A stretch of 64,000 bases of DNA, from the IMG/VR virus record IMGVR_UViG_3300033069_001940, positions 1-64,000 of that record; one strand, 5' to 3'. Shown in pieces: positions 36,690-54,299 of this stretch. This DNA is from a virus. Lineage: Duplodnaviria > Caudoviricetes. Made by a program: the position numbers and the translations under genes. The notes beneath the pieces were generated by a model, which ran no database searches, was not told the DNA's origin, and was given only the letters and a program-made list of their open reading frames with translations. Numbering within the stretch: the stretch's first letter is position 1; each line of letters starts with the position of its first letter.

Positions 36690-39587
36690 ATGAAGAAAAA
36701 AGAAATTTCAATACCAGAAACATTATGGCAAAATTCAATGCGCGTACAGCAATCAGATTTGATTGCTCAACAAAATCACAGCAATCAAGTAGATTCTGCG
36801 ATAGTAAATAATCATTTTGGTTCTGGTGTTTTATTAGAAGGCTTGAATAAAACGATTATTTTTGATTCTGATAATCTTACTACAGACCAAACTAACTTAA
36901 AAAATATTAATTCATTTGATGGTGTTGGGATTACCCCTCATAATCAACCTTCGGATTTAACATATGGTAATCAGTTAGAGGTTATTTTAACTGATTCAAA
37001 TGTTTTTGGAAGATTATCAGTTAAGGTAGCGATCATCGGATTAGATTTTAATGGCAATCTGCAAAGTGATACTTTTTATTTTTTTGAAAATGAAAAGCAG
37101 ATTACATCCAAACATTATACCAAGGTCTTAAGTATTTTATTTTATGATTTTTTTGGAAATTTTATTTCTAGAAATCTTGGTGGAAGAATTTTAATTCAGG
37201 AAACAAATTCATTACAAATTTCCAAAGAATCTGTAATGATTGCTCAGGATACTTATCCATCTTTATTTTGGAGAGATTTTAAACCAAATACCACAACATC
37301 AAATTTATCAAATATCTTACAAACAGCAATAGGCCCAGAATATAATGTTGATGGTTTAAATATTAATATAAGCGGAATAACTTCCAAGCAATTAGAGCCA
37401 GACGACGTTGTTTCGCAGGTTGGACAAAAGTTTTTAGCAAAAACTAATAATATTCAAAAAATAACATTGCTTTTAGGAGTTGTAGCTGACGGTTCTGTAT
37501 TTGATTGGTCAGGTGATTTGGTTGTTAGTATATATCCATTACAAACAGACGTCGTTAATCCTGGCGATATTCTACCAGGATTGCCAATTGAATTTACTCC
37601 ATCTAATCAACCTTTAGTTCAAATTAGTTATAGTCAACAAACATTAAAAGAAATTGGATATCAATTAAATGATGTACTTCAACCAATTGATTTTGTATTT
37701 TCTGGAACAAAAGTTGGAAAATCTGGCGGAATAGTTCCAGATAAATATTATGTGGTAACTGTAAAACGCTCAGGTTCTGCTGATACTGGCACAATTTTAT
37801 TAGGAGCAGGTTTAAGCTCATCATCTGATTATAGAGTTACACTTTACAATAGCGTGTGGGTTGATATTCCAGAAGAATCATTATGGTTCCAAGTCTGGAC
37901 CGATGCTGCTAAAGTATCAGACGGAATGGGATATGATAATGGTATTGGTATTAGCATTCCTAAAACAAAATTAGATCCAAAAACTGGATCCATTATTGAT
38001 AACGAAGAAAAATATTATTCAATTTTTTCTACATCAGAAAACACTTTAAATACAGCTATTATACAGGCGGTTGAAGAAGATTTTCTAGTTTCTCAAAATG
38101 AAAGAACGGGATCAAAAACATTTATTAGAAAAAGAATGGTCCCATCGTTAAATTTTGTTAGTTCTTCTAAGCTTAATGAGTTAAAAAATGAATATTTACC
38201 ATTAATAGTGGGTGCTGCCCAAGATTTTAATCCAAAAAAGAATTTGACTTTAACTAAAGTTCAAACATATCCTGGATTAGGACTTAATGATGCATTTATC
38301 ATTATTAATCCTGACTCTGACTTATTATCATTTAATTTGGTCGGAAGCAAACTAAAACCAAATGTTCTTAATACTAATGAATATAGAATATTTAAACAAA
38401 CTCTATATACTAATTATTATGGAGACGTTAATGGCGATGGTATAATTGATAATTTAGATGTAATTAGAGCTACGGAATTATTAGGATATTCTTTATCAAG
38501 CCCTGTAACACAGCAAAAGATTTTAGACGGTGAAGTTACCACTTTAGAAATTTTAAGAGCAGATGTGGATGGCGATGGAACAGTAACATCAACAGATATA
38601 GACTTAATTACACAATATGTTAATAAAGAAATTTCTGGGTTCTCTGCTGGAACTTATTTTAAACACTTGTTATTAAAAGTACAACAAAGCGTTGGTCGTT
38701 ATGATTATTATTATGATTGTACTAATGGAAGAATAAGATTAGATGGAGTTACTAGTCAAAATATTATTTCGGTAGGTAGCGTCAGTGAGTCAACCGCAAT
38801 ATTAGACGGGTACATGTTTGATCAATCAATAGAGTCTGACCCAGCTTATTCAACTACATCATTTGTTGATGTAACATATGAAATATTACCACAATTATTT
38901 TGGCAGTCTTATTTATTCTGTGTTAATGATGATGTTAGATTAGTACCATCTTCATTTATAAATGAAAATGCAATAGTACCGTATACCGACCCCAACATTT
39001 CTTTGTCTGAGGATAAATCAAAATCTACACCAACAGTTGATACTGGAAGAAATGATGTATTTTTCCCAGGCCATATTTATCTTAATAATGGCCAATTACT
39101 TAATAAAGATGGCACTTATTACAAAATAGATTTTGAAATTGGAAACATTACTTTAGAATTACCAATTCAAGCTTTAATCGAATCTAATATTAATATTTTT
39201 GAAAAATTTATTTGCGAATATAATAACACTGGATTAACTGCGGCTAAATACAAAGCAATGAAATATGCTGATGGAAGTTTTGTTCAGCCAAATGATTTAG
39301 CATATAATAGAATAAGATTTGCAGCGGCGATTCAGAGTATTGCAAAAAATTCTGATGGTTATTCTGTCGATGATGGTTATGGAATAATTTTAGACGATAT
39401 ATTCGGGGTTTTAATAGATCATTCAACCGGCATTTTAACTTTAAATGTTCAGAATCTGTCGATAGATCCTATTTATTTAACTTTGATTACAAAAATTCAA
39501 ATTACCGTTTATCTTAAGAAAGGCAGTTGGAACAATACTCCTATTGTTGTTAATGCTTCTGAAATAGCGGGTTTAATTTCTTCGTAA
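36690..39587 (+). CDS. Baseplate/tail-associated protein containing a type I dockerin-like domain
   Basis: N-terminal W.N..RV...DL..QQ......GSGVL attachment-type motif. Duplicated Ca-binding repeats GDVNGDGIIDNLD and ADVDGDGTVTSTD at about 38421-38620. Confidence 0.65.
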   Translation: MKKKEISIPETLWQNSMRVQQSDLIAQQNHSNQVDSAIVNNHFGSGVLLEGLNKTIIFDSDNLTTDQTNLKNINSFDGVGITPHNQPSDLTYGNQLEVILTDSNVFGRLSVKVAIIGLDFNGNLQSDTFYFFENEKQITSKHYTKVLSILFYDFFGNFISRNLGGRILIQETNSLQISKESVMIAQDTYPSLFWRDFKPNTTTSNLSNILQTAIGPEYNVDGLNINISGITSKQLEPDDVVSQVGQKFLAKTNNIQKITLLLGVVADGSVFDWSGDLVVSIYPLQTDVVNPGDILPGLPIEFTPSNQPLVQISYSQQTLKEIGYQLNDVLQPIDFVFSGTKVGKSGGIVPDKYYVVTVKRSGSADTGTILLGAGLSSSSDYRVTLYNSVWVDIPEESLWFQVWTDAAKVSDGMGYDNGIGISIPKTKLDPKTGSIIDNEEKYYSIFSTSENTLNTAIIQAVEEDFLVSQNERTGSKTFIRKRMVPSLNFVSSSKLNELKNEYLPLIVGAAQDFNPKKNLTLTKVQTYPGLGLNDAFIIINPDSDLLSFNLVGSKLKPNVLNTNEYRIFKQTLYTNYYGDVNGDGIIDNLDVIRATELLGYSLSSPVTQQKILDGEVTTLEILRADVDGDGTVTSTDIDLITQYVNKEISGFSAGTYFKHLLLKVQQSVGRYDYYYDCTNGRIRLDGVTSQNIISVGSVSESTAILDGYMFDQSIESDPAYSTTSFVDVTYEILPQLFWQSYLFCVNDDVRLVPSSFINENAIVPYTDPNISLSEDKSKSTPTVDTGRNDVFFPGHIYLNNGQLLNKDGTYYKIDFEIGNITLELPIQALIESNINIFEKFICEYNNTGLTAAKYKAMKYADGSFVQPNDLAYNRIRFAAAIQSIAKNSDGYSVDDGYGIILDDIFGVLIDHSTGILTLNVQNLSIDPIYLTLITKIQITVYLKKGSWNNTPIVVNASEIAGLISS

Positions 39588-39589
39588 TT

Positions 39590-40684
39590 ATGAAAATTTG
39601 TATCAAAGGTTTTTTCGGTGAGAATCACTCTTGGGCAGTATGTCATCGCGGTCTAGCTAATTCCTTAATTAAAAAAGGACATGATGTAGATATCTGTTCT
39701 ACAGATGGAAGTAGATTTCTTCCAAAAAATCTACTTCCATTTCTTAAAAAAGAAAATCAATTATATCATGATTATGATATGCAAATTAGTTATACTGCTA
39801 TGATTAATTTTCCGAGACATTTATCGCGCGGAACCAAAAATAGATTTGGTATTTGGAATTATGAATTTACGGTTTTGCCAAATAAACCACAACCATTTAA
39901 TAAATTTTATACATTTACTGATAAATTTCTGCCATCCTCGAATTTTTCAAAAGAAATTTTTTTAAAAAATAATATTCCAGAGAGTCATATGGAAGTGGTT
40001 TCTCATGGAGTTGATTTAGAACATTGGAATAATTTAGAGCCATTTAAATTAAATACAAATAAAAAAGTTAAAATATTAGCCAATATAGCACAGCCTCATA
40101 TAAGAAAAAATCTATCAGGATTACTAGACGCTTATGGTTTAGCATTTAATAAAAGCGATGATGTTTGTTTAGTGTTGAAGGTAGTTGATAAACCGCCTTC
40201 ATTTTCTTTTGAAGTTTCTTTTTCAGAAATATATAAAGACTTTAATAAAAAATTCCCTAATCATGCGGAATGCGAAGTTATTAAAGCTTTTATTCCAGAG
40301 ATAGGAAGTTTATATAAATCAACAGACATAGTATTTACTATGTCAAATTCTGAATGTTTTTATTTTCCTGGATTAGAAGCATTAGCAACTAATAATATAA
40401 ATGTTTGTCCTCGTTATGGTGGACAATTAGATTTTTTAAATGATGGCAATGCTTTGTTGATAAGTGGAAAAGACGTCAGAGCCCCAATTGCGGCTCAATA
40501 CTGGAATGGTTCGCCATACTCTTCTATGTTTGAGCCATCAGTTAGTGAAGCCGTAGATAAGTTAAGGTTCGCGGTATCAAATGTAAATGATTTAAAAAAT
40601 AAATTTTCAACAAATTCTAAAGAGATATTGAAAGAATATACTTGGGACAAAGTTACTGACAAAATTATTAGTTTGGCAAAATAA
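39590..40684 (+). CDS. Glycosyltransferase family 4 (GT-B)
   Basis: V.HGVD, RKNLSGLLDAY and S.SECFYFPGLEALA (E-x7-E motif), YGGQLDF, YTW. Confidence 0.88.
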   Translation: MKICIKGFFGENHSWAVCHRGLANSLIKKGHDVDICSTDGSRFLPKNLLPFLKKENQLYHDYDMQISYTAMINFPRHLSRGTKNRFGIWNYEFTVLPNKPQPFNKFYTFTDKFLPSSNFSKEIFLKNNIPESHMEVVSHGVDLEHWNNLEPFKLNTNKKVKILANIAQPHIRKNLSGLLDAYGLAFNKSDDVCLVLKVVDKPPSFSFEVSFSEIYKDFNKKFPNHAECEVIKAFIPEIGSLYKSTDIVFTMSNSECFYFPGLEALATNNINVCPRYGGQLDFLNDGNALLISGKDVRAPIAAQYWNGSPYSSMFEPSVSEAVDKLRFAVSNVNDLKNKFSTNSKEILKEYTWDKVTDKIISLAK

Positions 40685-41646
40685 TGTCATTTAAAATTTT
40701 TCCTTTTTCGGCCGGAATCCCTTGGGAAATAAATAAGGGAATCTTAAATCCTAAGATTCCATTTAATATTTTAAATAATGCTATTTCAGATAAAAATATT
40801 ATTGTTACTTGTTATGGTGGTTTGCTAGAATCTTATTTAAGTCTTTCTTATCTTGAAGCTTTTAATAAAATTTGGCCATCTAAAAAATTAACTTGGTCAG
40901 GCAACCCTATATTCAAAGATTTGATAGAAGCAAATGGTCTGTCTAAATTTAGCGAAGAAATACCTGGAGAGATTTTATCAAGATACCCTGTACCGTTATT
41001 TTTTGATAAATTAAATAACGCAATATTTAATCCATTAAATAATTACATAAAAATAAAACCTTATTATGGAGGCTTGAAATCATTCAATAATAATAATGTT
41101 TATTTAAAACAAATCTGGAATAATTCTCTTCTTGATTTTAAAAATTTTTATTTGCCTTTAATTAGAAATGATTTTGATAATAATAATTTTAAAAATCATT
41201 TATTATTATCAAAATTTGATTTTAATAAACCTTATATTATTATTATCCCTGATGATTTAAAATATTCAATTCATTCTCAAAAATGTTTGCCTTGGAATAT
41301 TCAACAGGTTAAATCTTTTGCTACAATTATATCACAATTAGGATATTCTACAGTTATCTTAACTGATAACGTTTATAAATATTATTCAAATAATTTGCCT
41401 TTTGTTTTTGAATTTAATTTTACTGCATTTTTTACTTTAATTAAGAATTCAAAAATGATTTTATCTAATGAAATAGATTTTTTATTAATTTCACAGTTAA
41501 TATCGGACAATTATTTGGTATCAAATAAGGTAAAAAAATATCTAGATTTTGGTAAAATTGATTATTTATTAAAAACAAAAAGTAAAATTAAAATATTCAA
41601 ATCAATGAATCAAAATGATGTTATTGGATTATTAAATAAAATATGA
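40684..41646 (+). CDS. Divergent GT9 (heptosyltransferase-like) fold protein
   Basis: GGLLE...L..L....P.KKLTW, KPYIIIIP...K..PW and LIKNSKMILSN segments parallel the GT9 layout. Degenerate. Confidence 0.4.
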   Translation: MSFKIFPFSAGIPWEINKGILNPKIPFNILNNAISDKNIIVTCYGGLLESYLSLSYLEAFNKIWPSKKLTWSGNPIFKDLIEANGLSKFSEEIPGEILSRYPVPLFFDKLNNAIFNPLNNYIKIKPYYGGLKSFNNNNVYLKQIWNNSLLDFKNFYLPLIRNDFDNNNFKNHLLLSKFDFNKPYIIIIPDDLKYSIHSQKCLPWNIQQVKSFATIISQLGYSTVILTDNVYKYYSNNLPFVFEFNFTAFFTLIKNSKMILSNEIDFLLISQLISDNYLVSNKVKKYLDFGKIDYLLKTKSKIKIFKSMNQNDVIGLLNKI

Positions 41647-44252
41647 AATCATATATTACAGCATTTAAAAATTGTAGATTTACTAACTATGGATTATTAT
41701 TTGAATCTAAAACTGGAAGGTGTTTTTTAGATTTGTCTGGATATAGTAAAGTTAAGTTATGTTTTACCAGAATTTCTGGAGATGGCAAAATTATTCTTTG
41801 TTCTGACGGATTAGATAAAGAATATTCAATATTATCAAAATATAATTTTGAATTAGAGATTGAATTTAACGATCCAAAAATTCAAATACTTCGCCCTAAG
41901 AGTAGCCTTGGAGAGATTGTTTTAACTAATGTTATAGTACAGGATGGTATGTCAAAATGGAATGAAATTTTTAAAAAGATTGATTCTAAATATATTAGAG
42001 TTGTTAATGATAATTTATATGCCAATGACGGGGCTTATATAGCGCCTAAAGATCTTGTAGATAATTTAATAACAATTCCAGAAAAAAGTTTTGTTTATAA
42101 GGAAGATAAAATTGTTTTTAGTCAATGTCAAATAAGCGCTTTGTCTTTAAAAGACAAATTAGAGACGACAAAAGAAGAAAAATATACTGAAATATATAAT
42201 TCAAATCAAAGTCTTTCTTTTAAAAATTATAATTATAATAGTAAAAAACTTAAATATATTTATAGTTGCGGGGAGCATTTTTTATTATTAAAACCAATCT
42301 CCAATGCGAGTTTTTCTGTTTCTAATCTTGAAGAAAACACAAAATATTACATTAAAATTAGAGCAAAAAAATTAAATGGCAATGGTAGATTTCATTTTAA
42401 TATTTCTCCAAAAAATAATCTTGGATTTGCTGACTGTACAATAGACGCTGGTTCTAATTTTAATGAATTTAATCTAACTGTAGAGACTGGTTCTATAGAA
42501 TTTCCTGGCAATTTATTTAAAATAAATGTAGGTATGTTAGATGATGGTATAGGCGAAGTTTTAATATCTAACATAACAATTTATTGCGATTCAGAAAAAT
42601 GCAATATTGTAAATATACCAAAAAATATACCAAAAAATACATTAAATAAATTAAAAGAAAATGAAACAAAAGTTATTTTAAATAAAAATATTAATAACAA
42701 ATCAATAATATCTAAAAATCTCCCACAATTATTAAATCCATCCAAATTAAGACCATCTTTTGATTTAAAAGCAAATACAGATAGAAAATTTGTTATAGTT
42801 ATTCCAAGCTATAAAAATGAGAAATGGGTTGAAAAAAATATCACTTCAGCATTAAATCAAAATTATAATTTTTATAGAGTTATTTTTATAGATGATTGCT
42901 CCCCGGATAATACATTTGAAGTGGCTCAAAATGTTATTAAAAAATTAAATTCACAAATTAAAACAACTCTAATTAAGAATCAAGTTAGAAAAGGCGCTCT
43001 TTGCAATTTATATAATGCCATTCATAGTTGCGCTGATGACGAAATTATTGTTACTCTTGATGGCGATGATTGGCTTGCACATGATAATGTTTTAAGTTTT
43101 CTTAATACCGTTTATAAGTCTGGAGATACTTGGATGACTTATGGCCAATATAAAAATTGGCCAGATGGCGGCAAGGGTTTGTGTAAACAAATTCCAAAAC
43201 ATATTATTGATAGTAATGCTTATCGAGCGCATGAATGGTGCTCTTCTCATTTAAGAACATTTTATGCCTGGCTATTTAAATCAATTAAGTTAGAAGATTT
43301 TAGATATCAAGACCAAGAATTTATGAGTATGGCTTGGGATATGACTATGTGTTTCCCAATGTTAGAAATGTCTAAAAATCACCATAAATTCATTCCAGAT
43401 ATTTTGTATATTTATAATCTTGAAAATCCACTCAATGATCATAAGGTTAATAAAAAATTACAACAAGACACCGATGCATTTGTTAGAGCTAAAAATAAAT
43501 ATCAACCTAAATTACCAGAACAATATAATGGTAAAAAAACTAAAATTGGTCTTTTAATTATTGGGACTAATAAATATGTACAATTTTTAAATCCATTAAT
43601 TTCATCTGCCGATAGATATTTTTTTGTTGATGATAAGTATGATGTAACTTATTTTGTTTTTACCGATGGTAAAATTAATTTTGCTACAAACAGAAACGTT
43701 GAAGTAATACCTATTGAACATAAATCATTTCCGTTTGCGTCTATGGATAGATTTAAACATTTTTCAAATAATAAAGAAATTTTAAGTAAAATGGATTATC
43801 TTTATTATGTAGATGCGGATAGTTTGTTTGTTGATAGTATAGATGATGAAATTTTAGGTGATTTAGTTGGCGTTACTCATTGTGGTTATTACAAGCGCCA
43901 AGGAACCTTTGAGACAAATAAAAATTCTAAATTATACCATCCATTAGAAAAAACAAAAAATGCAGTTTATTATGGAGGAGGATTCTCTGGAGGTTTGTCT
44001 TCTAAATATTTAGAGTTAAGTCAGGAAGGTGCGAGACTGATCGAAGAAGACCTAAATAATAACATCATGCCCCTTTGGCATGATGAGACTTTTTTAAATT
44101 ATTACTTTATTAATAATCCTCCACAAATTACTCTTTCTCCAAGCTATCATTATCCACAAGATAATCCAGAAATATATAAAAAATGGAGCCCTGATAATTT
44201 TATTCCTAAAATATTGTTGCTTGAAAAAAATCACAGAGATATTAGGTCTTAA
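41643..44252 (+). CDS. Multidomain glycosyltransferase: CBM-like N-region + GT2 + GT6 (ABO-type)
   Basis: GT2: IVIPSYK, SALNQNY, IDDCSPD, LDGDDWL. GT6: IGLLIIGTNKY..F, VTYFVFTD, YVDAD, YYGGGFSGG, WHDETFLN.Y. Upstream jelly-roll-like domain. Confidence 0.88.
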   Translation: MKSYITAFKNCRFTNYGLLFESKTGRCFLDLSGYSKVKLCFTRISGDGKIILCSDGLDKEYSILSKYNFELEIEFNDPKIQILRPKSSLGEIVLTNVIVQDGMSKWNEIFKKIDSKYIRVVNDNLYANDGAYIAPKDLVDNLITIPEKSFVYKEDKIVFSQCQISALSLKDKLETTKEEKYTEIYNSNQSLSFKNYNYNSKKLKYIYSCGEHFLLLKPISNASFSVSNLEENTKYYIKIRAKKLNGNGRFHFNISPKNNLGFADCTIDAGSNFNEFNLTVETGSIEFPGNLFKINVGMLDDGIGEVLISNITIYCDSEKCNIVNIPKNIPKNTLNKLKENETKVILNKNINNKSIISKNLPQLLNPSKLRPSFDLKANTDRKFVIVIPSYKNEKWVEKNITSALNQNYNFYRVIFIDDCSPDNTFEVAQNVIKKLNSQIKTTLIKNQVRKGALCNLYNAIHSCADDEIIVTLDGDDWLAHDNVLSFLNTVYKSGDTWMTYGQYKNWPDGGKGLCKQIPKHIIDSNAYRAHEWCSSHLRTFYAWLFKSIKLEDFRYQDQEFMSMAWDMTMCFPMLEMSKNHHKFIPDILYIYNLENPLNDHKVNKKLQQDTDAFVRAKNKYQPKLPEQYNGKKTKIGLLIIGTNKYVQFLNPLISSADRYFFVDDKYDVTYFVFTDGKINFATNRNVEVIPIEHKSFPFASMDRFKHFSNNKEILSKMDYLYYVDADSLFVDSIDDEILGDLVGVTHCGYYKRQGTFETNKNSKLYHPLEKTKNAVYYGGGFSGGLSSKYLELSQEGARLIEEDLNNNIMPLWHDETFLNYYFINNPPQITLSPSYHYPQDNPEIYKKWSPDNFIPKILLLEKNHRDIRS
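42612..42640 (+). repeat. 12-bp tandem repeat in interdomain linker
   Basis: AATATACCAAAA x about 2.4, encoding NIPKNIPKNT. Confidence 0.6.
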
Positions 44253-44972
44253 ATGTCAGTTATGTTTTCAAAATTGGGACAAATGGGGCGTCTAGGTAAT
44301 CAGTGCTTTCAGGCGGCTGCCGCCATAGCATTGGCAGATGAATATAGCGTCCCCTACTTATTACCTAAAACAGAATTACATGAAGCTTTTCCTAATTTAA
44401 AATATTGTAGTATTCCAAATAGCTCAATGGTATATAAAGAACCAGATTTTTCTTATAAAGAAATACCGTATGTTGAAAATATGGATTTATTAGGATATTT
44501 CCAATCTTGGAAATATTTTAATAATTGTAGAGGCTTAATAAATAATTTATTTAAATTTCCCAATGATGTGCCAGAATTAACAGGAGTTACTGCTATTCAT
44601 GTACGTCGTGGTGATTATGTAAAACTTGGTCAAGAATATTATGTCGATTTGTCTTTTACAGATTATTATGTCCAAGCAATAGGATATATTAAGTCTAGTA
44701 AATATTATGTTTTTTCAGATGATTTAGAATATTGTAAAAAAATGTTTAAAGGTAATGAATATGAATTTATATCATCTGGAAGTCCGTGGAAAGATTTACA
44801 GATGATAAGTTCTTGTGAAAATGTTATTATGGCCAATTCATCATTCTCTTGGTGGGGAGCTTATTTAAATAATAATCAAAATAAAATAGTAATAGCTCCT
44901 AAAAAATGGTTTGGTAGTAAATTGTCGCATAGTACAAATGATTTATATAACTCAGAATGGGTTATAATATAA
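44253..44972 (+). CDS. Alpha-1,2-fucosyltransferase, GT11
   Basis: GRLGNQ, GYFQSWKYF, IHVRRGDY, VFSDD and NSSFSWWGAYL family motifs. Confidence 0.92.
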   Translation: MSVMFSKLGQMGRLGNQCFQAAAAIALADEYSVPYLLPKTELHEAFPNLKYCSIPNSSMVYKEPDFSYKEIPYVENMDLLGYFQSWKYFNNCRGLINNLFKFPNDVPELTGVTAIHVRRGDYVKLGQEYYVDLSFTDYYVQAIGYIKSSKYYVFSDDLEYCKKMFKGNEYEFISSGSPWKDLQMISSCENVIMANSSFSWWGAYLNNNQNKIVIAPKKWFGSKLSHSTNDLYNSEWVII

Positions 44973-44981
44973 AGGTTTTTT

Positions 44982-45761
44982 ATGACAAGCTGGTGGAATA
45001 AAAATGTAGAATCAAGGCTTGATGACTTTAAGTCATGGGTTGGGGACCATAATCAGGCAAGTAAAGTTTATTGTAGAAAATATATTGTAGAAAAACAATA
45101 TAAAAGTATGGTAGATTGTGGTTGTGGGTTAGCCACAGATTTTTTTGCATTAAAAAATGATGGTTATAGCATTGCTTATACCGGCATAGACAGTTGTAAA
45201 TTTATAGTTGATACTAATAGGTCTAATGGAATAGACATGGTGGAGGCAGAATTAGAACAACCTTTACCAATAGAAGATAATAAATACGATGTAGCGTATT
45301 GTAGAGAAGTTCTTGAACATCTATCTTATTATGAAAATGCAATAAATGAATTTATAAGGATAGCTTCAAAAGAAGTAATAATTGTATGGTTTATAAAACC
45401 AATAGAAGAATGGCAGTGGGAAGAAGAGATAAAAGATAAAATTCTTAGAATGAAAAAAGAGCATTTTGAAGAACAATATAAAATAAATACAGAGAATGGA
45501 TTAACTGATCCTCTTCTAGTAAAAGATATAGATATAGTAATTTCCGATGATAATAAAGAAATCAATTATTGGAAGCCAGAAGATCTTTATCATAACAAAT
45601 ATGATAAAAATAAATTAGAGAATTTTATCTTAAGCAATCCAAAAGTAGAAAAAATATTTTGGAATGATGTGTGTGATGAACCATATCCAGTTCAATGTGA
45701 AACTGATAATAAGCCCAATTTCATAAAATCAGTATTACATATAGTTTTAAAGGAAAAATGA
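44982..45761 (+). CDS. Class I SAM-dependent methyltransferase
   Basis: VDCGCG, YTGID, LP..D..YD....EVLEHL. Confidence 0.85.
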   Translation: MTSWWNKNVESRLDDFKSWVGDHNQASKVYCRKYIVEKQYKSMVDCGCGLATDFFALKNDGYSIAYTGIDSCKFIVDTNRSNGIDMVEAELEQPLPIEDNKYDVAYCREVLEHLSYYENAINEFIRIASKEVIIVWFIKPIEEWQWEEEIKDKILRMKKEHFEEQYKINTENGLTDPLLVKDIDIVISDDNKEINYWKPEDLYHNKYDKNKLENFILSNPKVEKIFWNDVCDEPYPVQCETDNKPNFIKSVLHIVLKEK

Positions 45762-46837
45762 AATTTTTTAATATCGATCAACATGTTTCAGTCATAGCGG
45801 ATATCGCTCATATATTTAAAAATTTAGGTCATCAGGTTGATGACTGGTCATTGTCTGGACATCATTGGGTTTTAGGTAAACCAAAACCAAAAATTATGTT
45901 AAGCGACGGAAGTCAACTCATTGGATCTAATGTTTGCACTCAAGAAACATGTGATAAATTTTACGAACAATATAAAGATCAATTAGAACAATATGACGCT
46001 TTTATTGTTTGTTATCCAGTAGAATTTGCGCTCCTTTATGAAAAATGGAACAAACCAATTATAGTCGTAAATTGTGTTAGATATGAAGCGGATATGAATA
46101 TCCAAACATGGACACGAATAATTAAAAGTAGGCTAGATAATTTTTTAAAGCTTAAACAAAGTGAAGGTAAATTATATTATATTTGTAATAATAAAGGAGA
46201 CCAATATTATACAAAATATTTTACAGGCATAGATGGTGTGCATATTCCAAGTTTGTGCGAGTATACTAACGCAAAATATACTGGAACAAAAAATAAATAT
46301 ATAATACATGATAGAGCAGAGATTTCTGTTAATAATAATTTATGTATTAACTTAGATAATATAAGGGATAAAAATAGGAAATATACTTGGCAAGATTTAT
46401 ATGATTATAAAGGGGTTATACATGTACCTTATAATAATGGTTCAATGTCTATATTTGAACAATATACAGCAAATGTTCCAATGTTTTTCCCATCAAAACA
46501 ATATGCAAAAAAACTTATTAGTGAAAATAAAATGTTTTCTGATTTGACGTTTTATAAAATTAACAAAGTTAATGAGCCAGAAGATTATAATAATCCAAAT
46601 AGTTTAAGAAATCCAGAAATTTTAAATAAATGGATTGATACATCTGATATGTATGATGTTGACAATATGAAATATATTCAATATTTTGATTCGCTTGCTC
46701 ATTTAGAGCATTTATTAAAAACAGTTAATTTGAAAGAAATTAGTAGTAATATGTCGGCACATAATGTATTAAGAAAAGAATCTATATATAATAGCTGGAA
46801 TCAAATTATTACAAGTGTTAAAAGTAAAATTAATTAA
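45758..46837 (+). CDS. Putative glycosyltransferase (GT-B-like), unclassified
   Basis: LGHQV N-terminal motif and YKGVIHVPYN..SMSIFEQYTANVPMFFP C-terminal nucleotide-sugar-binding-like segment; cluster context. Confidence 0.5.
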   Translation: MKFFNIDQHVSVIADIAHIFKNLGHQVDDWSLSGHHWVLGKPKPKIMLSDGSQLIGSNVCTQETCDKFYEQYKDQLEQYDAFIVCYPVEFALLYEKWNKPIIVVNCVRYEADMNIQTWTRIIKSRLDNFLKLKQSEGKLYYICNNKGDQYYTKYFTGIDGVHIPSLCEYTNAKYTGTKNKYIIHDRAEISVNNNLCINLDNIRDKNRKYTWQDLYDYKGVIHVPYNNGSMSIFEQYTANVPMFFPSKQYAKKLISENKMFSDLTFYKINKVNEPEDYNNPNSLRNPEILNKWIDTSDMYDVDNMKYIQYFDSLAHLEHLLKTVNLKEISSNMSAHNVLRKESIYNSWNQIITSVKSKIN

Positions 46838-46852
46838 ATAAATTAGGATAAT

Positions 46853-47638
46853 ATGAAGGTTGCTATTTTTTCATTCGCTGTTAATTTTCAATTTCCAATT
46901 GATATTATGAATAGACAATTCAAAAAATATTTAAAAGATGATTATGAATTAATCATTTTTAATGATGCTTCTGATAAACAAGAAGAAAAAAATATTAATG
47001 TTGTTACTTCATCTAATCAAATTAAATGCGTACGTGTGCCACAAGAAATACATAAAATATTTAGTCCATCAGTAGCATATGCTGAAACTTTAAATTGGGC
47101 CGTTCACAATTATGCAGCATCAAAAGATTTTGATATTATTGTATTAATGCATTCTGATATATTTCCAATATGTCAAATTTCTATGGTTGATATTTTAGGA
47201 GATTATACTGTGGCTAGCACTTCTGAGTTCCGTAAAATTGGCGAAACAGGAATAACATATTTATATCCAGCTTTTACAATTGTTAATATGAAATCTTTAA
47301 AACAATTAGGTGTTCATAAATTAGATTTTGGTTTGGAGCCAGGCGTAGACACTGGAGGTAAAACTAAAGATTTTATTATAAAATATCCAAATTTAGTTAA
47401 ATTATTACCTAATTATCAAGCTTCATATTTTTTACAAACATTAGATAATTCTGAAATATTAGCGAAATATTTTAAAGAAGATTTAGAAATTTCTAGAGCA
47501 CACGGATTAAGTTCTGGATGGATTGCAGAGGGTATGTACCATTATATGGCGGGGTCTAGATGGAATTTGAATGATAATCCATTATTTGCCGAAGGGCATA
47601 AAAAAAGAATGGATTTATTTTTAAAATATTTTTATTAA
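46853..47638 (+). CDS. Putative glycosyltransferase (GT-A-like), unclassified
   Basis: IIFND, MHSDIFP (DxD-equivalent position), DTGG, YHY.AGS.W; cluster context. Confidence 0.5.
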   Translation: MKVAIFSFAVNFQFPIDIMNRQFKKYLKDDYELIIFNDASDKQEEKNINVVTSSNQIKCVRVPQEIHKIFSPSVAYAETLNWAVHNYAASKDFDIIVLMHSDIFPICQISMVDILGDYTVASTSEFRKIGETGITYLYPAFTIVNMKSLKQLGVHKLDFGLEPGVDTGGKTKDFIIKYPNLVKLLPNYQASYFLQTLDNSEILAKYFKEDLEISRAHGLSSGWIAEGMYHYMAGSRWNLNDNPLFAEGHKKRMDLFLKYFY

Positions 47639-47646
47639 AGGTGGAT

Positions 47647-48288
47647 ATGACATATTATTCTCAAGCGTGGCAAGATGAATTTGTAGCAAATATTCTAAAT
47701 TTTAAAAAGAATGGATATTATTTAGATATTGGTAGTACAGATGGAATTAATCAAAGCAATTCATATTTTTTTGAAAACGAACTTGGCTGGAAAGGAGTTT
47801 GTATTGAAAGGGGTGTTGGATATACAGAACACTACAAAAATAATAGGAATTGTGTTTTTTTAAATGAAGACGCGACACAAATTGATTATAAAAAGTTATT
47901 AGATAATTTATCTTATCCAAAGCAAATTGATTATTTATCAGTTGATATAGATGAAAATACCGTTGCTGCTTTAAATAAGCTTCCGTTAGAAGATTATAAA
48001 TTTAGTGTAATAACAATTGAGCATGACGCTTATCGTTTTAATGATTCTTTAAGATTAGAAGAAAGAAGAATATTAAGTTCATATGGTTATACCTTATTGT
48101 GCTCAGACGTTTTAGTTCCGCTCGGCTGTGGTATGGGTACAAATCTTCCATTTGAAGATTGGTGGGTGGATAATAAAGTTTTTAATATGGATAATACACA
48201 TAGGTTATGTTGCGATAAACAGTATCCAGATGATATAGTTAAAAAAGTAAAGCAAGAAAAAGTACAATGGCTAAAAGGAAATGAATGA
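47647..48288 (+). CDS. FkbM-family methyltransferase
   Basis: YSQ..QD, GYYLDIGS.DG...SNSYFFE..LGWKGVCIE, IDYLSVDID, ITIEH, EDWW. ATG at 47647 preferred over GTG at 47641 on SD spacing. Confidence 0.88.
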   Translation: MTYYSQAWQDEFVANILNFKKNGYYLDIGSTDGINQSNSYFFENELGWKGVCIERGVGYTEHYKNNRNCVFLNEDATQIDYKKLLDNLSYPKQIDYLSVDIDENTVAALNKLPLEDYKFSVITIEHDAYRFNDSLRLEERRILSSYGYTLLCSDVLVPLGCGMGTNLPFEDWWVDNKVFNMDNTHRLCCDKQYPDDIVKKVKQEKVQWLKGNE

Positions 48289-49121
48289 AAAAAATTATAA
48301 GTTATTCTTTATATAATTCTATACCAAAAAATACAATTAATGCAATTATTAATTGTATGTTAGCCGAAAAAATTTATCCAGGTTGGGTGGTGAGATTTTA
48401 TTTAGATGATACTGTGCCAAAACCTATAGTTGATATATTGAGAACATTTTCTCATGTTGAGGTTGTAGAAATGCCGCGCGGAACAGGAAGCGAAAGAATG
48501 CTATGGAGATTTTTAAGTTGTAGTTCGGAAATAGAAACAGATTACCAATCTATTATGATTAGTCGTGATGCTGACTCTTATTTATCGGTTAGAGAAAAAG
48601 CTTGTGTAGACGCTTGGCTTGCTGGTAATAAGAATTTTCATAAAATTATTGGTCATTGTTATCACACAGACCCTAAGGTTAAAATTATGGGAGGTTTATG
48701 GGGCTGTAGAAATTCTATTTTATCAAAAATGAAAGAAGAAGTTGATAAGTTTATTAATGGAGGCGAGACATATGACCAAGGATTTTTAGCCAATGTGATT
48801 TACCCAAATGTACTGCATGATTTAATTTGTCATTATGACGACCCATCATTTAATAATAAAGGTCAAAGAGTTTATGGTCAGCCAGAAGAAAAAGGAAGTG
48901 CATTTCCAATTCCTCCATATAAAGAGTGGGATGAGCCTGTTGAGGGAATTTCTTGGCTTGAAGCTAATAAACTAAATGAATTTTATTGCGCTCATTGTAA
49001 TAAAAAACACAAAGAAGTTATTGGCGGTATTATTGAGCATATTCCATCGAGAGCGATGGAGGTCGTTCGAAAATATGTCGCAGAAAAAGGAATTTCTGTA
49101 GAAGGTTGCCCCGGTTTTTAA
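48285..49121 (+). CDS. Putative GT-A glycosyltransferase of an unclassified family
   Basis: IISYSLY, YPGW.VRFY, MLWRFL, SRDADS (DxD), IMGGLWG, DQGFL...IYP. Confidence 0.55.
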   Translation: MKKIISYSLYNSIPKNTINAIINCMLAEKIYPGWVVRFYLDDTVPKPIVDILRTFSHVEVVEMPRGTGSERMLWRFLSCSSEIETDYQSIMISRDADSYLSVREKACVDAWLAGNKNFHKIIGHCYHTDPKVKIMGGLWGCRNSILSKMKEEVDKFINGGETYDQGFLANVIYPNVLHDLICHYDDPSFNNKGQRVYGQPEEKGSAFPIPPYKEWDEPVEGISWLEANKLNEFYCAHCNKKHKEVIGGIIEHIPSRAMEVVRKYVAEKGISVEGCPGF

Positions 49122-49133
49122 TAAAGGATAAAA

Positions 49134-50033
49134 ATGATAAATAATGAAGTTGGTATATTATGTAACGAACAACATGGTGACATAGGTTTGTGTACATCTG
49201 TTTTAAAATATAAAGATCTATTATGGCCAGGTAAAAAAGTAATATGGTATTGTAATTTTGCTCCAGAGAAAGTTACATATATGGATATGTTAAAATTCAA
49301 TGATGCTATATCTGAAATTAGAGAATGGCCAAAAGTTTGGTTTAAAGATATAATGGATGAAAATTTTCAAATTAGACATGATAAAAAACATGAATTTGAA
49401 CAATTAAAAACACTTGATGTTGGATATTTTCCAGCACCTTGGGCAGCATTACCAAATAATTTATTTAATAACAAAAATTATTCAGAAATACCAAGACATA
49501 TATTCGGAGCAGACCCCTCTTGGGAGTGGCGGCCGTGTTTGGGATTTTCAAATGAAGAGAGAGAGATGGTTAAAGATTTTTCTTCAAAACTACCTCATTC
49601 AAAAACCGTAATGCTTGAAACTCAATTAAGATCTGCTGGTAATTTTAATCTAAGCGAAGATATTATAAGAAATACCATGAGCCTTTGTAGAAAAAAATGG
49701 GGGAAATGTAATTTTATTTTTGCTAGCAAAATAGATCATACTAAATTTGTTGATGACGCTGGCGTAGTTTCAGCCGCGGATTTCACTGTAAGGCAAACTT
49801 CATTAATACATGACCAATCAGATTTATTTATATCTGTATGTAGTGGGATTACTGTTGCTTCAAGTTGCTGGGGTTCGAAGCCGGTTCCGAGAGTCGAGAT
49901 GTGTAGTGTAAATACAAGTTATAAAAATTTATGTTATGGACCGACCATTAGTGTTTTTTGTGAAAATTGGACAGAAGAACAATTAAAAAAAGGTTCTGAA
50001 GATGCAATTATTCAGATTTTAAATAAATTATAG
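49134..50033 (+). CDS. GT9-like glycosyltransferase
   Basis: HGDI....VLK....WPGKKVIW start, P.L.FS.EE linker and LFISVCSGI segment equivalent to GT9 FIGxDSG. Confidence 0.55.
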   Translation: MINNEVGILCNEQHGDIGLCTSVLKYKDLLWPGKKVIWYCNFAPEKVTYMDMLKFNDAISEIREWPKVWFKDIMDENFQIRHDKKHEFEQLKTLDVGYFPAPWAALPNNLFNNKNYSEIPRHIFGADPSWEWRPCLGFSNEEREMVKDFSSKLPHSKTVMLETQLRSAGNFNLSEDIIRNTMSLCRKKWGKCNFIFASKIDHTKFVDDAGVVSAADFTVRQTSLIHDQSDLFISVCSGITVASSCWGSKPVPRVEMCSVNTSYKNLCYGPTISVFCENWTEEQLKKGSEDAIIQILNKL

Positions 50034-50043
50034 CAGGGGAAAT

Positions 50044-51261
50044 ATGGAAGAATTATTTACATTAGGTGAGTTTTATTTATGTGACTTTCTTAAAAGCGAG
50101 GAATCTTATAGAGGAAGCAAACATGAATTAAAGTTAGTTTTAACTGATGATGGTAATGTTAGACTAGATAAACCTGCGCCATTAAATCAAATGTTTGGTC
50201 GTTACTTTTATAGGAGCGGAACAAATCAAACAATGAGAGATGAATTAAAAAATATTGTAAATTCAATTCTTCATGTGTCAAAATTAAAAGAAAATGATCT
50301 TTGGGTGGATATTGCTTCAAATGATTTAACTTTATTAGGATTTGTTCCAAATAATTTAATTAGAATTGGAATAGACCCTTGTGAAGATTCTTATTTAACC
50401 GACGCCTCTCAGAAAACTAATTTGGTTATTCAAGATTATTTTACAGCAGATGTTTTTAAAAAATGTATTTTTGGAAAACAAAAAGCAAAAGTAATAACTT
50501 GTATAGCTATGTTTTATGATTTAATTGAACCAGATAAATTCCTTCAAGATGTTAATGAGGTCTTAGATGATTCTGGTTTATTTGTAGTACAATTATCTTA
50601 TACCCCTTTGATGCTTAAGCAATTAGCGTTTGATAATATACTTGGAGAACATTACTATTATTATTCGCTTTTTAATTTAAAAGCTTTATTTGAAAAAAAT
50701 GGATTTAAGATTTTAGATTGCCAGTTGAATGATACGAATGGCGGTTCATTTAGAGTATATGCTTCAAAAATAAATTCTAATGAGTCTCATTTTGCTACTC
50801 AGCCGTATCGTGATGTAGCTGAATTTAGAGTTAAATCAATTTTGGAGTATGAAAAATCTTTAAAATTAGATAAAAAAGAAACATGGTTGGAATTTAAAGA
50901 AAATATTGATAAGCTTAAAGCTAAAGTTTTATCATTTTTAAATGAAAAAAAATCTCAAGGTAAAACTATATATGGCTATGCGGCTAGTACAAAATCAGCA
51001 ACTTTACTTCAATATTTTGGAATAGGGTCAGATTTAATCACATCTATTGCAGATAGGAATCCTTTAAAATGGGGTACGACAATGCCTGGAATAAATATTC
51101 CAATTGTTTCTGAAGATGAAGTAAGGAGCGCTAAACCAGATTATTTATTAATTTTAAGCTGGCATTTTGCCAAAGAATTTATTGAAAGGGAAAAGGATAT
51201 GTTACTTAATGGTACAAAATTTATTATTCCGTGCCCTCAATTTGAAATAATTTCAATATGA
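50044..51261 (+). CDS. NDP-hexose C-methyltransferase-like protein
   Basis: YFYRSG, DIASND.TLL, GIDP, FDNI.GEH.YYYS, GGSFRVY, GYAA..K..TLLQY, DRNPLKWG...PG..IPI, PDYLLILSWHF..E. Confidence 0.85.
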   Translation: MEELFTLGEFYLCDFLKSEESYRGSKHELKLVLTDDGNVRLDKPAPLNQMFGRYFYRSGTNQTMRDELKNIVNSILHVSKLKENDLWVDIASNDLTLLGFVPNNLIRIGIDPCEDSYLTDASQKTNLVIQDYFTADVFKKCIFGKQKAKVITCIAMFYDLIEPDKFLQDVNEVLDDSGLFVVQLSYTPLMLKQLAFDNILGEHYYYYSLFNLKALFEKNGFKILDCQLNDTNGGSFRVYASKINSNESHFATQPYRDVAEFRVKSILEYEKSLKLDKKETWLEFKENIDKLKAKVLSFLNEKKSQGKTIYGYAASTKSATLLQYFGIGSDLITSIADRNPLKWGTTMPGINIPIVSEDEVRSAKPDYLLILSWHFAKEFIEREKDMLLNGTKFIIPCPQFEIISI

Positions 51262-52049
51262 ATTTAGTTATAGGCAATACCTCACAGCTTTCATATTATT
51301 TCCCAAACGATTATATTAAAATATCATCAAGAAATATAAATTTAGATTATATTAAAAATAACAAATGGAATGCTGTATATATCTGTTTTGCAGAACAAAG
51401 AATATATGATTCTAATATAGATTATATTACACCTAATTATATTTATACTTTACAAATAATAAATTCTATTTTGGAATGCACTGATAAAATAGTTTGTTAT
51501 ACTAGTTGTGAATTATGGAATAATTTATCTGGTTATATAGATTTAGATACCGCCCCTAATTTTGATATAAATAACGAATATACTATTTCAAAATTTTTAT
51601 TGCTTAATAAAATTAAGCAATTAAGAAAAATTAACGAGAGATATAATAAAGTAATATTTATCCATCCATTCTATTTTAATTCTGCTTATAGATCAAATTA
51701 TTTTTTGTTTGGAAAAATTTTTGATTCAATTCTTAATAAAAAAGTTATAGATGTTGGTAATTTAAATTTTTATCGAGATATAGTTCATGCACAATATATT
51801 GTAGATAAAAGTATTGAAGCAAACAGCGATCTTGTGGTTGGGGCGGGAAAGTTATTTAATGTCAAAGATTTTATTGTAGATCTTTATAATTATTTTGATA
51901 TGGATTTTGAAAATTATACAAAAATTAATAATTTTTCTTCTTCTGGAAAAGAAAAATTAATTATGGCAAAAGTAAATATTAATTGGGATTATACATATCA
52001 AAATTTATTAAACGACACAGTGAATGATTTAAAAAAAGTTAAAGGATAG
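51258..52049 (+). CDS. Divergent NAD-dependent sugar epimerase/reductase (extended SDR)
   Basis: TSCELW, YTISK (YxxxK), FNSAYR...F, GNL..YRDIVH. The nucleotide-binding motif is degenerate (GNTSQLS). Confidence 0.65.
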   Translation: MNLVIGNTSQLSYYFPNDYIKISSRNINLDYIKNNKWNAVYICFAEQRIYDSNIDYITPNYIYTLQIINSILECTDKIVCYTSCELWNNLSGYIDLDTAPNFDINNEYTISKFLLLNKIKQLRKINERYNKVIFIHPFYFNSAYRSNYFLFGKIFDSILNKKVIDVGNLNFYRDIVHAQYIVDKSIEANSDLVVGAGKLFNVKDFIVDLYNYFDMDFENYTKINNFSSSGKEKLIMAKVNINWDYTYQNLLNDTVNDLKKVKG

Positions 52050-52050
52050 T

Positions 52051-52308
52051 ATGGAAGTAACTTTAGGAAATCTTATAGACCAGCTTTCGGTTGTTAATTT
52101 AAGAATCTGGCATGCCGAAGATAAAAAACGAGATAAGAGCGCTACTGATAAAGAGATAGCTGACGCCTGCCGTTTAACCAATATATGTAATAGCCAAAGA
52201 AATGATTTAATTGAAGAGATAGATAAAAAAATAAATCATATGGTTCAAACTGGTGAACTTCAAAAACTTTATGGACAGGGCTCAACAAAGATGTATGGTG
52301 GAAAATGA
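52051..52308 (+). CDS. Small helical protein (DUF4254-like)
   Basis: TLG.LIDQLS..NLRIWH.ED..R...[11 protein letters not shown] pattern, which I associate with glycosylation clusters. Confidence 0.55.
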
Positions 52309-53309
52309 CTCAAACGGCAATAATTACTGGAATTACTGGACAGACTGGCTCATATCTTGCAGACGTTCTTTTGGAAAAAGGTTACAAAGTATATGGTTTA
52401 AAAAGAAGAGCTTCAACAATTAATACTGAGCGTATAGATCATTTATATGTTGATCCTCATAAAGAAAGTAATTTAGAATTGGTTTATGGTGATTTGGCCG
52501 ATTATTCATCTATTGTGAGTATAGTAGCTGATGTTAAGCCGGATATGTTTTTTAATATGGCCGCACAATCGCATGTTCGAGTTTCTTTTGATATTCCTGA
52601 ATATACAATGGATGTTACTGGCAATGGTGTAATGCGTTGTTTAGAAGCTATAAGAAAATATAGTCCAAATACAAGATTTTTACAAGCCTCGTCTTCGGAA
52701 TTATTTGGCAGTTCGCCCCCACCACAAAATGAACAAACTAGATTTCAACCAAGGTCTCCGTATGCTGTAGCTAAAGCGGCCGGATATTATGCTGCTGTGA
52801 ATTATCGAGAGGCATATAATTTATTTGCTTGTAATACAATATGTTTCAATCATGAATCTCCACGTCGCGCTGAAACATTTGTTACAAGAAAAATAACAAA
52901 AGCGGCCTCCAGAATAAAATTAGGTTTACAAGACTTTTTATGGCTTGGTAATTTAGAATCTAAAAGAGATTGGGGTCATGCTAAAGATTACGCTAAGGCT
53001 ATGTATTTAGTTATTAATTCCGACCATCCAGATGATTATGTTGTTTCAACTGGTCAAATGCATTCTGTTAAAGAATTTGTTCAAATAGTTTTTGATAAAC
53101 TAGATTTAGATTGGACTAAATATGTTAAATTTGATCCAAAATATTTAAGACCATCTGAGGTAGATGCGTTGTTGGGTGATTCTTCTAAATTAAGAAATAC
53201 ATTAGGTTGGAAACCAGAGTATGATTTTAATATGCTTGTTGATGAAATGATTGAAAGAGATATGCAAGATGCTAAAAAAGAACAGTATATATTAAATTCA
53301 AAATTATAG
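52305..53309 (+). CDS. gmd: GDP-mannose 4,6-dehydratase
   Basis: [83 protein letters not shown]. Confidence 0.96.
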
Positions 53310-53366
53310 CTGATAACTGTCGAGTAGCTTCATTTTAAATTTCATCTCCTGTGTTGGAGAATAAAA

Positions 53367-54299
53367 ATGAGCATTAAGGTATTAGTGACCGGCGCCGCTG
53401 GAATGATAGGGTCGCATTTATCAGATAAATTAATCGATCTAGGTTTCGAGGTTATCGGATTGGATAATCTTTCGACCGGCAAAATAGAAAATTTAAATAA
53501 AAAAATGATTCTTGATAATCATTTTTATCAAGATAGTATTACTAATAAATATCTTGTTAAAGAGTTATTTGAAAAATACAAATTTAATTATGTATTTCAT
53601 TGTGCCGCTGAAATTGATTTAAGAAAAAGTTTTAAAGATCCGATTGGAAGCGCAGAGACTAATATTTTAGGTTCATTAAATTTGATTGAGCAATCTGTAA
53701 AACATCAATCTAAATTTATTTTTTCTTCTACTGGTGGCGCAATATATACATCATCTGATGAATTGCGTCTTCCATTTACAGAATGGAGAGATGCTTTACC
53801 ATCAAGTCCATATGGGTTAACTAAGTTAACAATAGAAAATTATTTAAAGATTTTTCATGAACATGATAATTTATCTTATGTAGCATTAAGATATTCTAAT
53901 GTTTATGGAACAAGACAAGCATTCGGAGAATGTGGTGTTTTGTCTATATTTATTAATAAACTTCTCAAATCTGAAAGTATTAATGTTTTTGGTGATGGTA
54001 ATCAAATAAGAGACTACATATATGTTAGTGACGTAGTGGATGCCAACATTAAAGCTATGAATTTATCTGGTGTTTATAATGTTGGAACAGGAGAAGGGAC
54101 TTCAGTTAATACAATTATTTTACATTTGAATAAATATTTTGGAATGATTGATGTTAATTATTTAGATGCTATTCCTGGAGAAATGAGATATAGTGTTTTA
54201 AATTGTGATAAATTAAAACGTCAAGGATGGTCTCCGTCTTTTAACCTAGACCAAGGTATAGCACAAGTTCTATCAAAAAGTGAGAAGTTAAATGTCTAA
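53367..54299 (+). CDS. UDP-glucose/UDP-GlcNAc 4-epimerase-like SDR
   Basis: VTGAAGMIGSH, DNLSTG, FSSTGGAIY, SPYGLTK, LRYSNVYG.RQ, GDGNQIRDYIYV.DV, YNVGTG. Confidence 0.85.
   Translation: MSIKVLVTGAAGMIGSHLSDKLIDLGFEVIGLDNLSTGKIENLNKKMILDNHFYQDSITNKYLVKELFEKYKFNYVFHCAAEIDLRKSFKDPIGSAETNILGSLNLIEQSVKHQSKFIFSSTGGAIYTSSDELRLPFTEWRDALPSSPYGLTKLTIENYLKIFHEHDNLSYVALRYSNVYGTRQAFGECGVLSIFINKLLKSESINVFGDGNQIRDYIYVSDVVDANIKAMNLSGVYNVGTGEGTSVNTIILHLNKYFGMIDVNYLDAIPGEMRYSVLNCDKLKRQGWSPSFNLDQGIAQVLSKSEKLNV

Follow-up and report, generated by a model that had tools for sequence, protein, structure and literature searches.

A GT2–GT6 fusion protein next to a GT11 gene in phage DNA: a predicted enzyme set for a blood-group-A-like glycan cap

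Which glycan might a phage build with a GT6 and a GT11 glycosyltransferase (GT) that are encoded directly next to each other, and to what would this glycan be attached? The question is raised by a stretch of 64,000 nucleotides (hereafter the window), namely the first 64 kb of the 125,608-bp IMG/VR record IMGVR_UViG_3300033069_001940, which is ∼29% complete according to CheckV. All large open reading frames (ORFs) of the window are on the + strand, as are all genes of the window given below. Since genes for a baseplate J protein, very large tail and fibre proteins, a tubulin of the TubZ/PhuZ type, and a UvsW-like helicase are present in the window, the record represents part of a huge tailed phage genome. 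We suggest, as the probable though by no means certain reading, that a GT2 domain, the GT11 protein, and the GT6 domain form a three-step module which yields a blood-group-A-like cap.

The GT6 of this locus is not a separate gene but the C-terminal domain of a three-part fusion of 869 aa (41643–44252), in which Pfam recognizes Glycos_transf_2 and Glyco_transf_6. The N-terminal region (residues 1–316, 41643–42590) was modeled by AlphaFold2 with a mean predicted local distance difference test (pLDDT) score of 83.7 and consists of three β-sandwich modules resembling carbohydrate-binding modules (CBMs). With this model, Foldseek retrieved tandem CBM22, tandem CBM51, malectin-like ectodomains, and Cry C-terminal domains with E-values of 1e-8 to 1e-6 and template modeling (TM) scores of only 0.2–0.3, and searches of Pfam and PHROGs with this region gave no match. 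We do not name a specific CBM family or ligand for the N-terminus, as the Foldseek matches are generic β-sandwiches with low TM scores. A low-confidence, disordered linker at residues ∼326–362 leads to the GT2 domain (residues ∼380–621, 42780–43505), which has an inverting GT-A fold (Pfam PF00535 at residues 385–495, E 6.8e-18) and whose closest matches of solved structure are TarP and TarS (E ∼7e-8). The GT6 domain follows at residues 624–869 (43512–44252). It matches Pfam PF03414 at residues 624–840 (E 1.7e-37; 129.4 bits, cut-off 25) and PHROG 3317, scores 172.9 bits on NCBIfam Gltr_6 (NF041524), which is under the subfamily cut-off of 250, and finds BoGT6a (E 1.2e-37) and the human ABO transferase (E 2e-29) in the PDB. 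Its motifs are DAD at 43812, His-Cys-Gly at 43878, YYGGGFSGG at 43968, and WHDET at 44076, and the C-terminal motif L..K.....R is made up by Leu859, Lys862, and Arg868. A palindrome with a 9-bp stem (CATCATGCC...GGCATGATG, 44063–44085), followed by a T-rich run, lies within the GT6 coding region before and at the WHDET codons and is probably a coincidence of the coding sequence.

The gene directly downstream (44253–44972) codes for a GT11 protein of 239 aa, a putative α-1,2-fucosyltransferase-type enzyme, and is the only GT11 gene of the 125.6-kb record. The protein matches PF01531 (Glyco_transf_11; E 8.9e-26; 91.2 bits, cut-off 23.9) and, along its full length, PHROG 2644 (E 4.1e-46). It has the motifs GRLGNQ and SSFSWWGAYL and carries the donor motif HxRRGDY as HVRRGDY at residues 116–122; a PDB sequence search with it returned no solved relative. 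At the junction, ...TCT TAA ATG..., the GT11 start codon abuts the stop codon of the fusion. An earlier sequence-only reading of the window had placed the boundary between GT6 and GT11 at this point, and ORF coordinates and junction agree with it. Its YYGGGFSGG segment and DAD metal motif were located exactly, and the two family assignments are borne out by profile scores far above threshold.

The residues of the GT6 domain give a hint to its donor and its acceptor. In the alignment to the solved structures, the DAD of the window corresponds to NAN of BoGT6a and to DVD of the human ABO transferase, and the donor tripeptide GGG corresponds to AGG of BoGT6a and to LGG of the human A transferase (GTA). 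The catalytic glutamate (Glu303 in GTA, Glu192 in BoGT6a) is Glu815 within WHDET and is invariant in 26 fused homologues, as are Asp724 and Asp726 of the DxD motif. BoGT6a binds 2′-fucosyllactose with His122, Thr134, Tyr153, Trp189, and Glu192, its Lys231 sits in the C-terminal lid, and enzymes using the H antigen are set apart from the α-1,3-galactosyltransferases (α3GalT) by His122, Gly124, and Ile228, where the latter have Gln, Trp, and Trp (PMC3516806). At these three distinguishing positions the window has His746, Gly748, and Leu859, which are of the H-antigen type and not of the α3GalT type; the other aligned acceptor positions are a Thr, Tyr776, Trp812, Glu815, and Lys862, with the Thr and Trp812 assigned by alignment to the solved structures. 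His746, Gly748, Tyr776, Glu815, Leu859, and Lys862 are, like the GGG tripeptide, invariant or nearly so in the 26 fused homologues; Trp812 is not invariant. The fusion protein ends with ...KNHRDIRS without a hydrophobic stretch and thus has no basic-hydrophobic-basic (BHB) membrane tail. PaGT6, the one assayed member of the DxD clade, transfers GalNAc onto the H antigen in a reaction that requires Mn2+ or Mg2+, and it does not act on N-acetyllactosamine (LacNAc) (PMC3516806). Because the donor-pocket and acceptor residues match those of GTA and BoGT6a, and given the activity of PaGT6, we predict that the GT6 domain is a metal-dependent α-1,3-GalNAc transferase acting on 2-O-fucosylated galactose. 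The sequence-only reading had likewise proposed that the small residues favour UDP-GalNAc and that the enzyme depends on a metal; GGG fits a GalNAc-type pocket, and the DxD motif fits metal dependence, as found for PaGT6 of the same clade.

That GT2, GT11, and GT6 would act on one glycan is suggested most strongly, as far as computational evidence goes, by alternative fusions. Eighty viral loci were fetched from IMG/VR with the fusion alignment as query; a locus search of IMG/VR with the GT6 domain sequence alone returned no loci. The recurring unit in the 80 loci is GT2 directly followed by GT11. GT6 is present in 20 of them, fused behind GT2 in 11, standing alone downstream of GT11 in five (L026, L036, L037, L042, and L061), and in other arrangements in four, and GT11 lies within 10 kb of GT6 in every phage GT6 locus except L008, in which the contig breaks off at the gene. 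On the other hand, GT2 is fused to GT11 in four loci. At 9917–12538 of L014, an ORF of 873 aa is composed of β-sandwich, GT2, and GT11 and lacks GT6, GT11 occupying the place that GT6 has in the window. Since GT2 is fused to GT6 in some phages and to GT11 in others, the enzymes appear to be tied to one glycan.

The bacterial loci tell a partly different story. This set consists of the 80 loci of the best relatives, mostly from Dependentiae/Babeliales and Chlamydiae and some from Pseudomonadota and Verrucomicrobiota. A GT2 orthologue (41–50% identity) stands beside GT6 in 62 of the 80, which speaks for a link of these two enzymes, and GT11 is found within 6 kb of GT6 in 24. As GT6–GT2 adjacency is commoner than GT6–GT11 adjacency, fucosylation may not always precede the GT6 reaction, and this weighs against the module as we propose it. 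One could go further and assume that GT6 acts on the product of its fused GT2 without prior fucosylation and that GT11 decorates another position or another glycan, so that no ABH-type branch would arise. The fusion itself would suit such a scheme, as it couples in one polypeptide the enzymes of the first and the third step and omits the second. However, His, Gly, and Leu at the distinguishing acceptor positions belong to the fucosylated-acceptor type and are not Gln, Trp, and Trp, PaGT6 does not use LacNAc, and GT11 joins GT6 in every untruncated phage locus; we hold a fucose-independent GT6 to be quite improbable and retain the order GT2, GT11, GT6.

Among the phages, GT2 and GT11 are the conserved core and GT6 is an optional cap. 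The relative order tail fibre, GT4-like, GT9-like, (β-sandwich) GT2, GT11 is shared, and no GT6 is found in the loci of the relatives L014, L016, L018–L024, L039, L047, L055, and L076. A GT6 profile search of whole records found none in five such relatives either, including the syntenic G011 (392 kb, 91% complete), and detected all four positive controls. From the presence and absence of GT6 among relatives it follows that H-like gene sets (GT2 and GT11) and A-like gene sets (with GT6 in addition) occur in one phage clade.

In the proposed sequence of reactions the inverting GT2 domain would first add a β-linked hexose, most likely galactose. GT11, going by its family membership, would then add an α-1,2-linked 6-deoxyhexose to this hexose, which would be fucose if GDP-fucose is available. 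Finally, the metal-dependent retaining GT6 domain would add α-1,3-GalNAc to the same hexose, as its donor and acceptor residues and the precedent of PaGT6 suggest. The product would be GalNAcα1,3(Fucα1,2)Galβ-R, terminating a larger methylated glycan made by the 18-gene cluster to which the three enzymes belong; the GT6 reaction would be the optional last step, and related phages would end at the H-like stage reached with GT2 and GT11. Two properties of the enzymes speak against this scheme: TarP and TarS, the nearest solved relatives of the GT2 domain, are GlcNAc transferases, and the GGG pocket is bigger than that of any assayed GT6. Further objections come from the sugar-nucleotide genes.

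Gmd (GDP-mannose 4,6-dehydratase) is encoded at 52305–53309 (TIGR01472, 452.8 bits, cut-off 415), followed at 53367–54299 by a GalE-like UDP-hexose 4-epimerase-type short-chain dehydrogenase/reductase (SDR), whose closest PDB match is the UDP-glucose 4-epimerase 4zrm (E 1.1e-74) and which scores 172.8 bits on TIGR01179, below the cut-off of 262. Both enzymes had been read from the sequence before, and the profiles agree. The GalE-like SDR is a candidate supplier of UDP-Gal or UDP-GalNAc, and the presence of these two precursor genes in the cluster speaks for the proposed cap. A third gene (54292–55185) codes for an RmlB-like SDR of 297 aa (117 bits on TIGR01181). We aligned it to its counterpart in L007, a 301-kb relative, which is a near-canonical dTDP-glucose 4,6-dehydratase with 356 bits on the same profile: the Lys of YxxxK is replaced by Leu, as is the third Gly of the NAD motif, TDE has become SDI with loss of the catalytic Glu, and eight residues are deleted. 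Judged from these lesions the protein looks catalytically dead, yet its ORF is intact. We rejected it as the missing fucose synthase, as it is a degenerate RmlB-like protein without the catalytic Lys.

The fucose synthase Fcl was not found in the 125,608-bp record, the best score being 43.7 bits against a cut-off of 500, in line with the sequence-only reading, which had noted no clear Fcl; neither was an NTP_transferase/sugar-1-phosphate nucleotidyltransferase found in this record. The relatives keep an Fcl-like gene by Gmd, and the window phage does not. In the complete genome G002 (428 kb), a C-methyltransferase gene and an unknown gene precede Gmd (451 bits), after which comes a full-length Fcl-like gene of 435 bits. 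Fcl-like genes scoring ∼240 bits lie by Gmd in G010 and in G006, the relative with the greatest synteny; none was found in G001. Moreover, the C-methyltransferase of the cluster could divert the product of Gmd. The failure to find Fcl and the nucleotidyltransferase, the contrast with the relatives, and this possible diversion count against the proposed cap; the Fcl-like gene that follows Gmd in G002 is a point in its favour. Given that no Fcl was found, either the host provides Fcl, or Fcl is encoded in the unsequenced 70% of the genome, or GT11 uses another GDP-6-deoxyhexose.

In the last case, which we regard as rather unlikely, the donor of GT11 would not be GDP-L-fucose but another sugar derived from the Gmd product, for example, D-rhamnose, 6-deoxytalose, colitose, or a C-methylated sugar, and the cap would be A-like in shape without being the A antigen, so that anti-A and anti-H reagents would fail to recognize it. 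Besides the failure to find Fcl, the neighbours of Gmd, first the GalE-like and then the degenerate RmlB-like SDR, point in this direction, as do the sugar C-methyltransferase and the two other methyltransferases of the cluster. In G002 (L167, 13391–15489), an RfbH/ColD-like pyridoxal phosphate enzyme of the aminotransferase fold (310 bits) is encoded beside a second Fcl-like SDR (167 bits), which suggests a branch of the GDP-colitose type in addition to the synthesis of GDP-fucose. Furthermore, WbgN of Escherichia coli O55, a colitosyltransferase, resembles α-1,2-fucosyltransferases. On the contrary, with only ∼29% of the genome at hand Fcl could be elsewhere, hosts often supply Fcl, the syntenic relatives do have Fcl-like genes by Gmd, the GT11 motifs are canonical, and a 4-reductase for an alternative sugar was not identified in the record.

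To what the cap would be attached may be reasoned from the setting of the genes. The glycan cluster (39590–57111) is tightly packed with minimal gaps, and its first gene begins 2 nt past the final tail gene; a strong terminator-like hairpin is seen only at 58460. The final tail-fibre-like protein (965 aa, 36690–39587) contains a type I dockerin domain (residues 577–645, E 2.4e-9). The cluster opens with a weak GT4-like gene (39590–40684, Pfam score below threshold) and a gene for a protein of 320 aa with a GT9-like predicted fold (40684–41646; Atlas structure match to a GT9 cluster with a TM score of 0.63, Pfam below threshold, no match in NCBIfam or PHROGs), and this order upstream of the fusion gene is kept in all close relatives. 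Downstream of GT11, Pfam and Atlas reveal a variable part (44982–52049) comprising an S-adenosylmethionine (SAM) methyltransferase, a GT-like protein, an FkbM methyltransferase, the sugar C-methyltransferase (50044–51261), and four unknown genes. The GT-like protein (359 aa, 45758–46837) is phage-specific and falls into virus-only Atlas clusters auto-named glycosyltransferase, with no match in Pfam, NCBIfam, or PHROGs; six ORFs of the whole cluster have no match in any of these three databases. The gene set of the variable part is conserved in L009, L012, L015, and L054. In L007 (13335–17996), polysaccharide pyruvyl transferases and other methyltransferases come after GT11, not the C-methyltransferase set of the window. 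Between relatives, the distal genes of the cluster are exchanged, whereas GT4-like, GT9-like, GT2, and GT11 stay put.

We tentatively favour the cytoplasmic glycosylation of virion proteins over the remodeling of a lipid-linked envelope glycan of the host, because the cluster comes right after the tail genes on the same strand, encodes soluble proteins only, and has no flippase, polymerase, or initiating transferase. In detail, no protein of the cluster contains a hydrophobic stretch of transmembrane grade, and the searches of Pfam and NCBIfam gave no match for a flippase or exporter, a polymerase, or an initiating transferase, that is, for O-antigen-type machinery (undecaprenyl, Wzx, Wzy). 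In the 17 structural proteins of the window (328–39587) we counted 19 DGY tripeptides, where ∼2.6 would be expected from composition; the 17 genes of the cluster have one, namely in the methyltransferase at 44982.

Alternatively, the module may act during infection on the envelope of the host and remodel its lipopolysaccharide (LPS), capsule, or S-layer glycan, which might, for example, prevent superinfection or hide receptors, and the virion would not be glycosylated. We take this to be possible, at less than even chances. In papers on cyanophages, homologous genes are interpreted as cell-wall or LPS modification (PMC9602691), the bacterial GT6 homologues lie in polysaccharide-type loci, the GT2 domain weakly matches PHROG 841 of GtrB-like O-antigen conversion proteins, and soluble peripheral transferases are usual in O-antigen assembly. 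Soluble transferases without exporter would also fit an action on undecaprenyl-linked intermediates of the host, which is a further point against our scheme. What disfavours an envelope target is the position of the cluster, with no strong terminator-like site between it and the tail genes or anywhere before 58460, the lack of a membrane protein, exporter, or initiating transferase in the cluster, and, as no more than a lead, the several-fold excess of DGY in the virion proteins. Glycosylation of DNA was also considered and dropped: GT6, GT11, and GT2 enzymes build oligosaccharides, and DNA-modification genes were not seen in the cluster.

If virion proteins are indeed the target, the phages of this huge-phage clade might display an ABO-like polymorphism of the virion, in which a GT2 and GT11 "H-type" core is extended by a GT6 "A-type" cap in some lineages. 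Genes for Fcl and colitose, C-methylation, and pyruvylation vary too, and this variation would diversify the particle surface and so help to evade lectin-like recognition, be it by hosts, grazing protists, or defence systems; we consider this idea improbable. The closest cellular relatives of GT6 are from protist endosymbionts (Chlamydiae and Dependentiae).

How special is the enzyme pair among its relatives? The fusion family comprises at least 146 protein clusters (90% identity, E 1e-3) on contigs that reach 478 kb, with several in the range of 420–480 kb, and has two N-terminal variants, one with β-sandwich as in the window (∼870–930 aa) and one with a SAM-methyltransferase (∼730–800 aa). 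DxD and GGG are combined in 116 of the 121 fused members, and all 116 with a readable motif have DxD; stand-alone GT6 relatives mostly have DxD and AGG. As DxD is also found in all 80 bacterial loci of the best relatives, it is typical here and not unusual as the sequence-only reading had it. The DxD clade was defined already in 2012 with enzymes from the cyanophage P-SSM2, marine metagenomes, and Parachlamydia (PMC3516806). A phylogeny of GT6, which the same reading had proposed, was made as a quick unrooted tree with SH-aLRT (Shimodaira–Hasegawa-like approximate likelihood ratio test) supports, vertebrate and NxN sequences being left out. The fused phage GT6 domains form one group (SH-aLRT 99), and the GT6 of Chlamydiae, Dependentiae, and Pseudomonadota form a separate one (SH-aLRT 100). 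The unannotated 642-kb phage LR756502 has a GT2–GT6 protein, GT11, and a C-methyltransferase in one cluster. A second clade with stand-alone GT6 of the AGG type is seen in LR756502, L088 (a contig of a Flavobacterium metagenome-assembled genome, MAG), and P0139 (contigs of up to 551 kb); the Flavobacterium-binned contig could be phage DNA that ended up in a MAG, or it could point to the host. Our analysis does not change the knowledge on the GT6 family as such, because phage and DxD members were described over a decade ago.

If the proposed module is real, widespread and very large environmental phages would make a sugar like human blood group A with a self-contained, partly fused enzyme set. 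These compact soluble enzymes could be of use for glycan synthesis, and the natural fusion would reveal the GT2 that provides the ABO-type step with its acceptor. In addition, the clade would be a test case for glycan-coated phage particles and for a blood-group-like variation of the coat between relatives.

Our literature searches retrieved no paper on the β-sandwich–GT2–GT6 architecture, the set of alternative fusions, the presence and absence of GT6 in syntenic relatives, or the loss of Fcl in the lineage. The article PMC12619734 on the "moraphage" lineage mentions core glycosyltransferases, and we found nothing in it that ties this lineage to the window phage. A known case of virion glycosylation is that of mycobacteriophages (Freeman et al. 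2023, cited in PMC12619734), where glycans are proven on the C-termini of capsid and tail tube proteins. These phages resemble the window in that transferase genes neighbour structural genes and that the systems do without export machinery; they have one to a few transferases with proven glycans, whereas the cluster of the window is known from its genes alone.

A close enzymatic parallel is the O-antigen locus of E. coli O86. We take its WbnJ, WbnK, and WbnI to be GT2, GT11, and GT6 enzymes, respectively, and the locus presumably includes gmd and fcl. The three proteins build the O-unit in this sequence (PMC4506291). Both systems have the same three transferase families in one locus with GDP-sugar supply and an ABH-type branched cap, which for the window is predicted. 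In E. coli O86, however, the cap is of the B type (Gal) and is made on an undecaprenyl carrier, Wzx and Wzy being part of the system, while for the window the residues predict GalNAc, carrier and export machinery are not encoded in the cluster, Fcl was not found, and two of the enzymes are fused. BoGT6a (PDB 4ayj, 4ayl, and 4cj8) is the best solved relative of the GT6 domain and has equivalent acceptor residues, a small donor pocket, and blood-group-A synthase activity; it differs in having NAN and not DxD, in being metal-independent, and in its membrane-binding C-terminus. With the clade of P-SSM2 and PaGT6 the window shares DxD, the lack of the C-terminal membrane-binding BHB region, and the retained catalytic Glu. 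The window GT6 is 36.5% identical to that of P-SSM2 and differs from these enzymes as it ends an 869-aa CBM-like–GT2–GT6 protein, has GGG and not the AGG of most stand-alone relatives, belongs to the separate fused clade, and has a longer C-terminal tail.

Among phages, close parallels are found in cyanophages. S-SCSM1 has gmd, fcl, and an α-1,2-fucosyltransferase in a glycan cluster, and in Synechococcus phage B23 GT11 (gp347) overlaps GT6 (gp348), an adjacency like that in the window. With 72 GenBank phage records carrying GT6, and with both families already included in PHROGs (3317 and 2644), the pair is not new to phages. The T4-like cyanophages have separate enzyme genes which in the loci examined are not placed right after the tail genes; the window phage is much larger, encodes a tubulin, and has a fused enzyme. 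The pairing of GT11 and GT6 in phages is already known, and the window presents a variant of it with a fused architecture.

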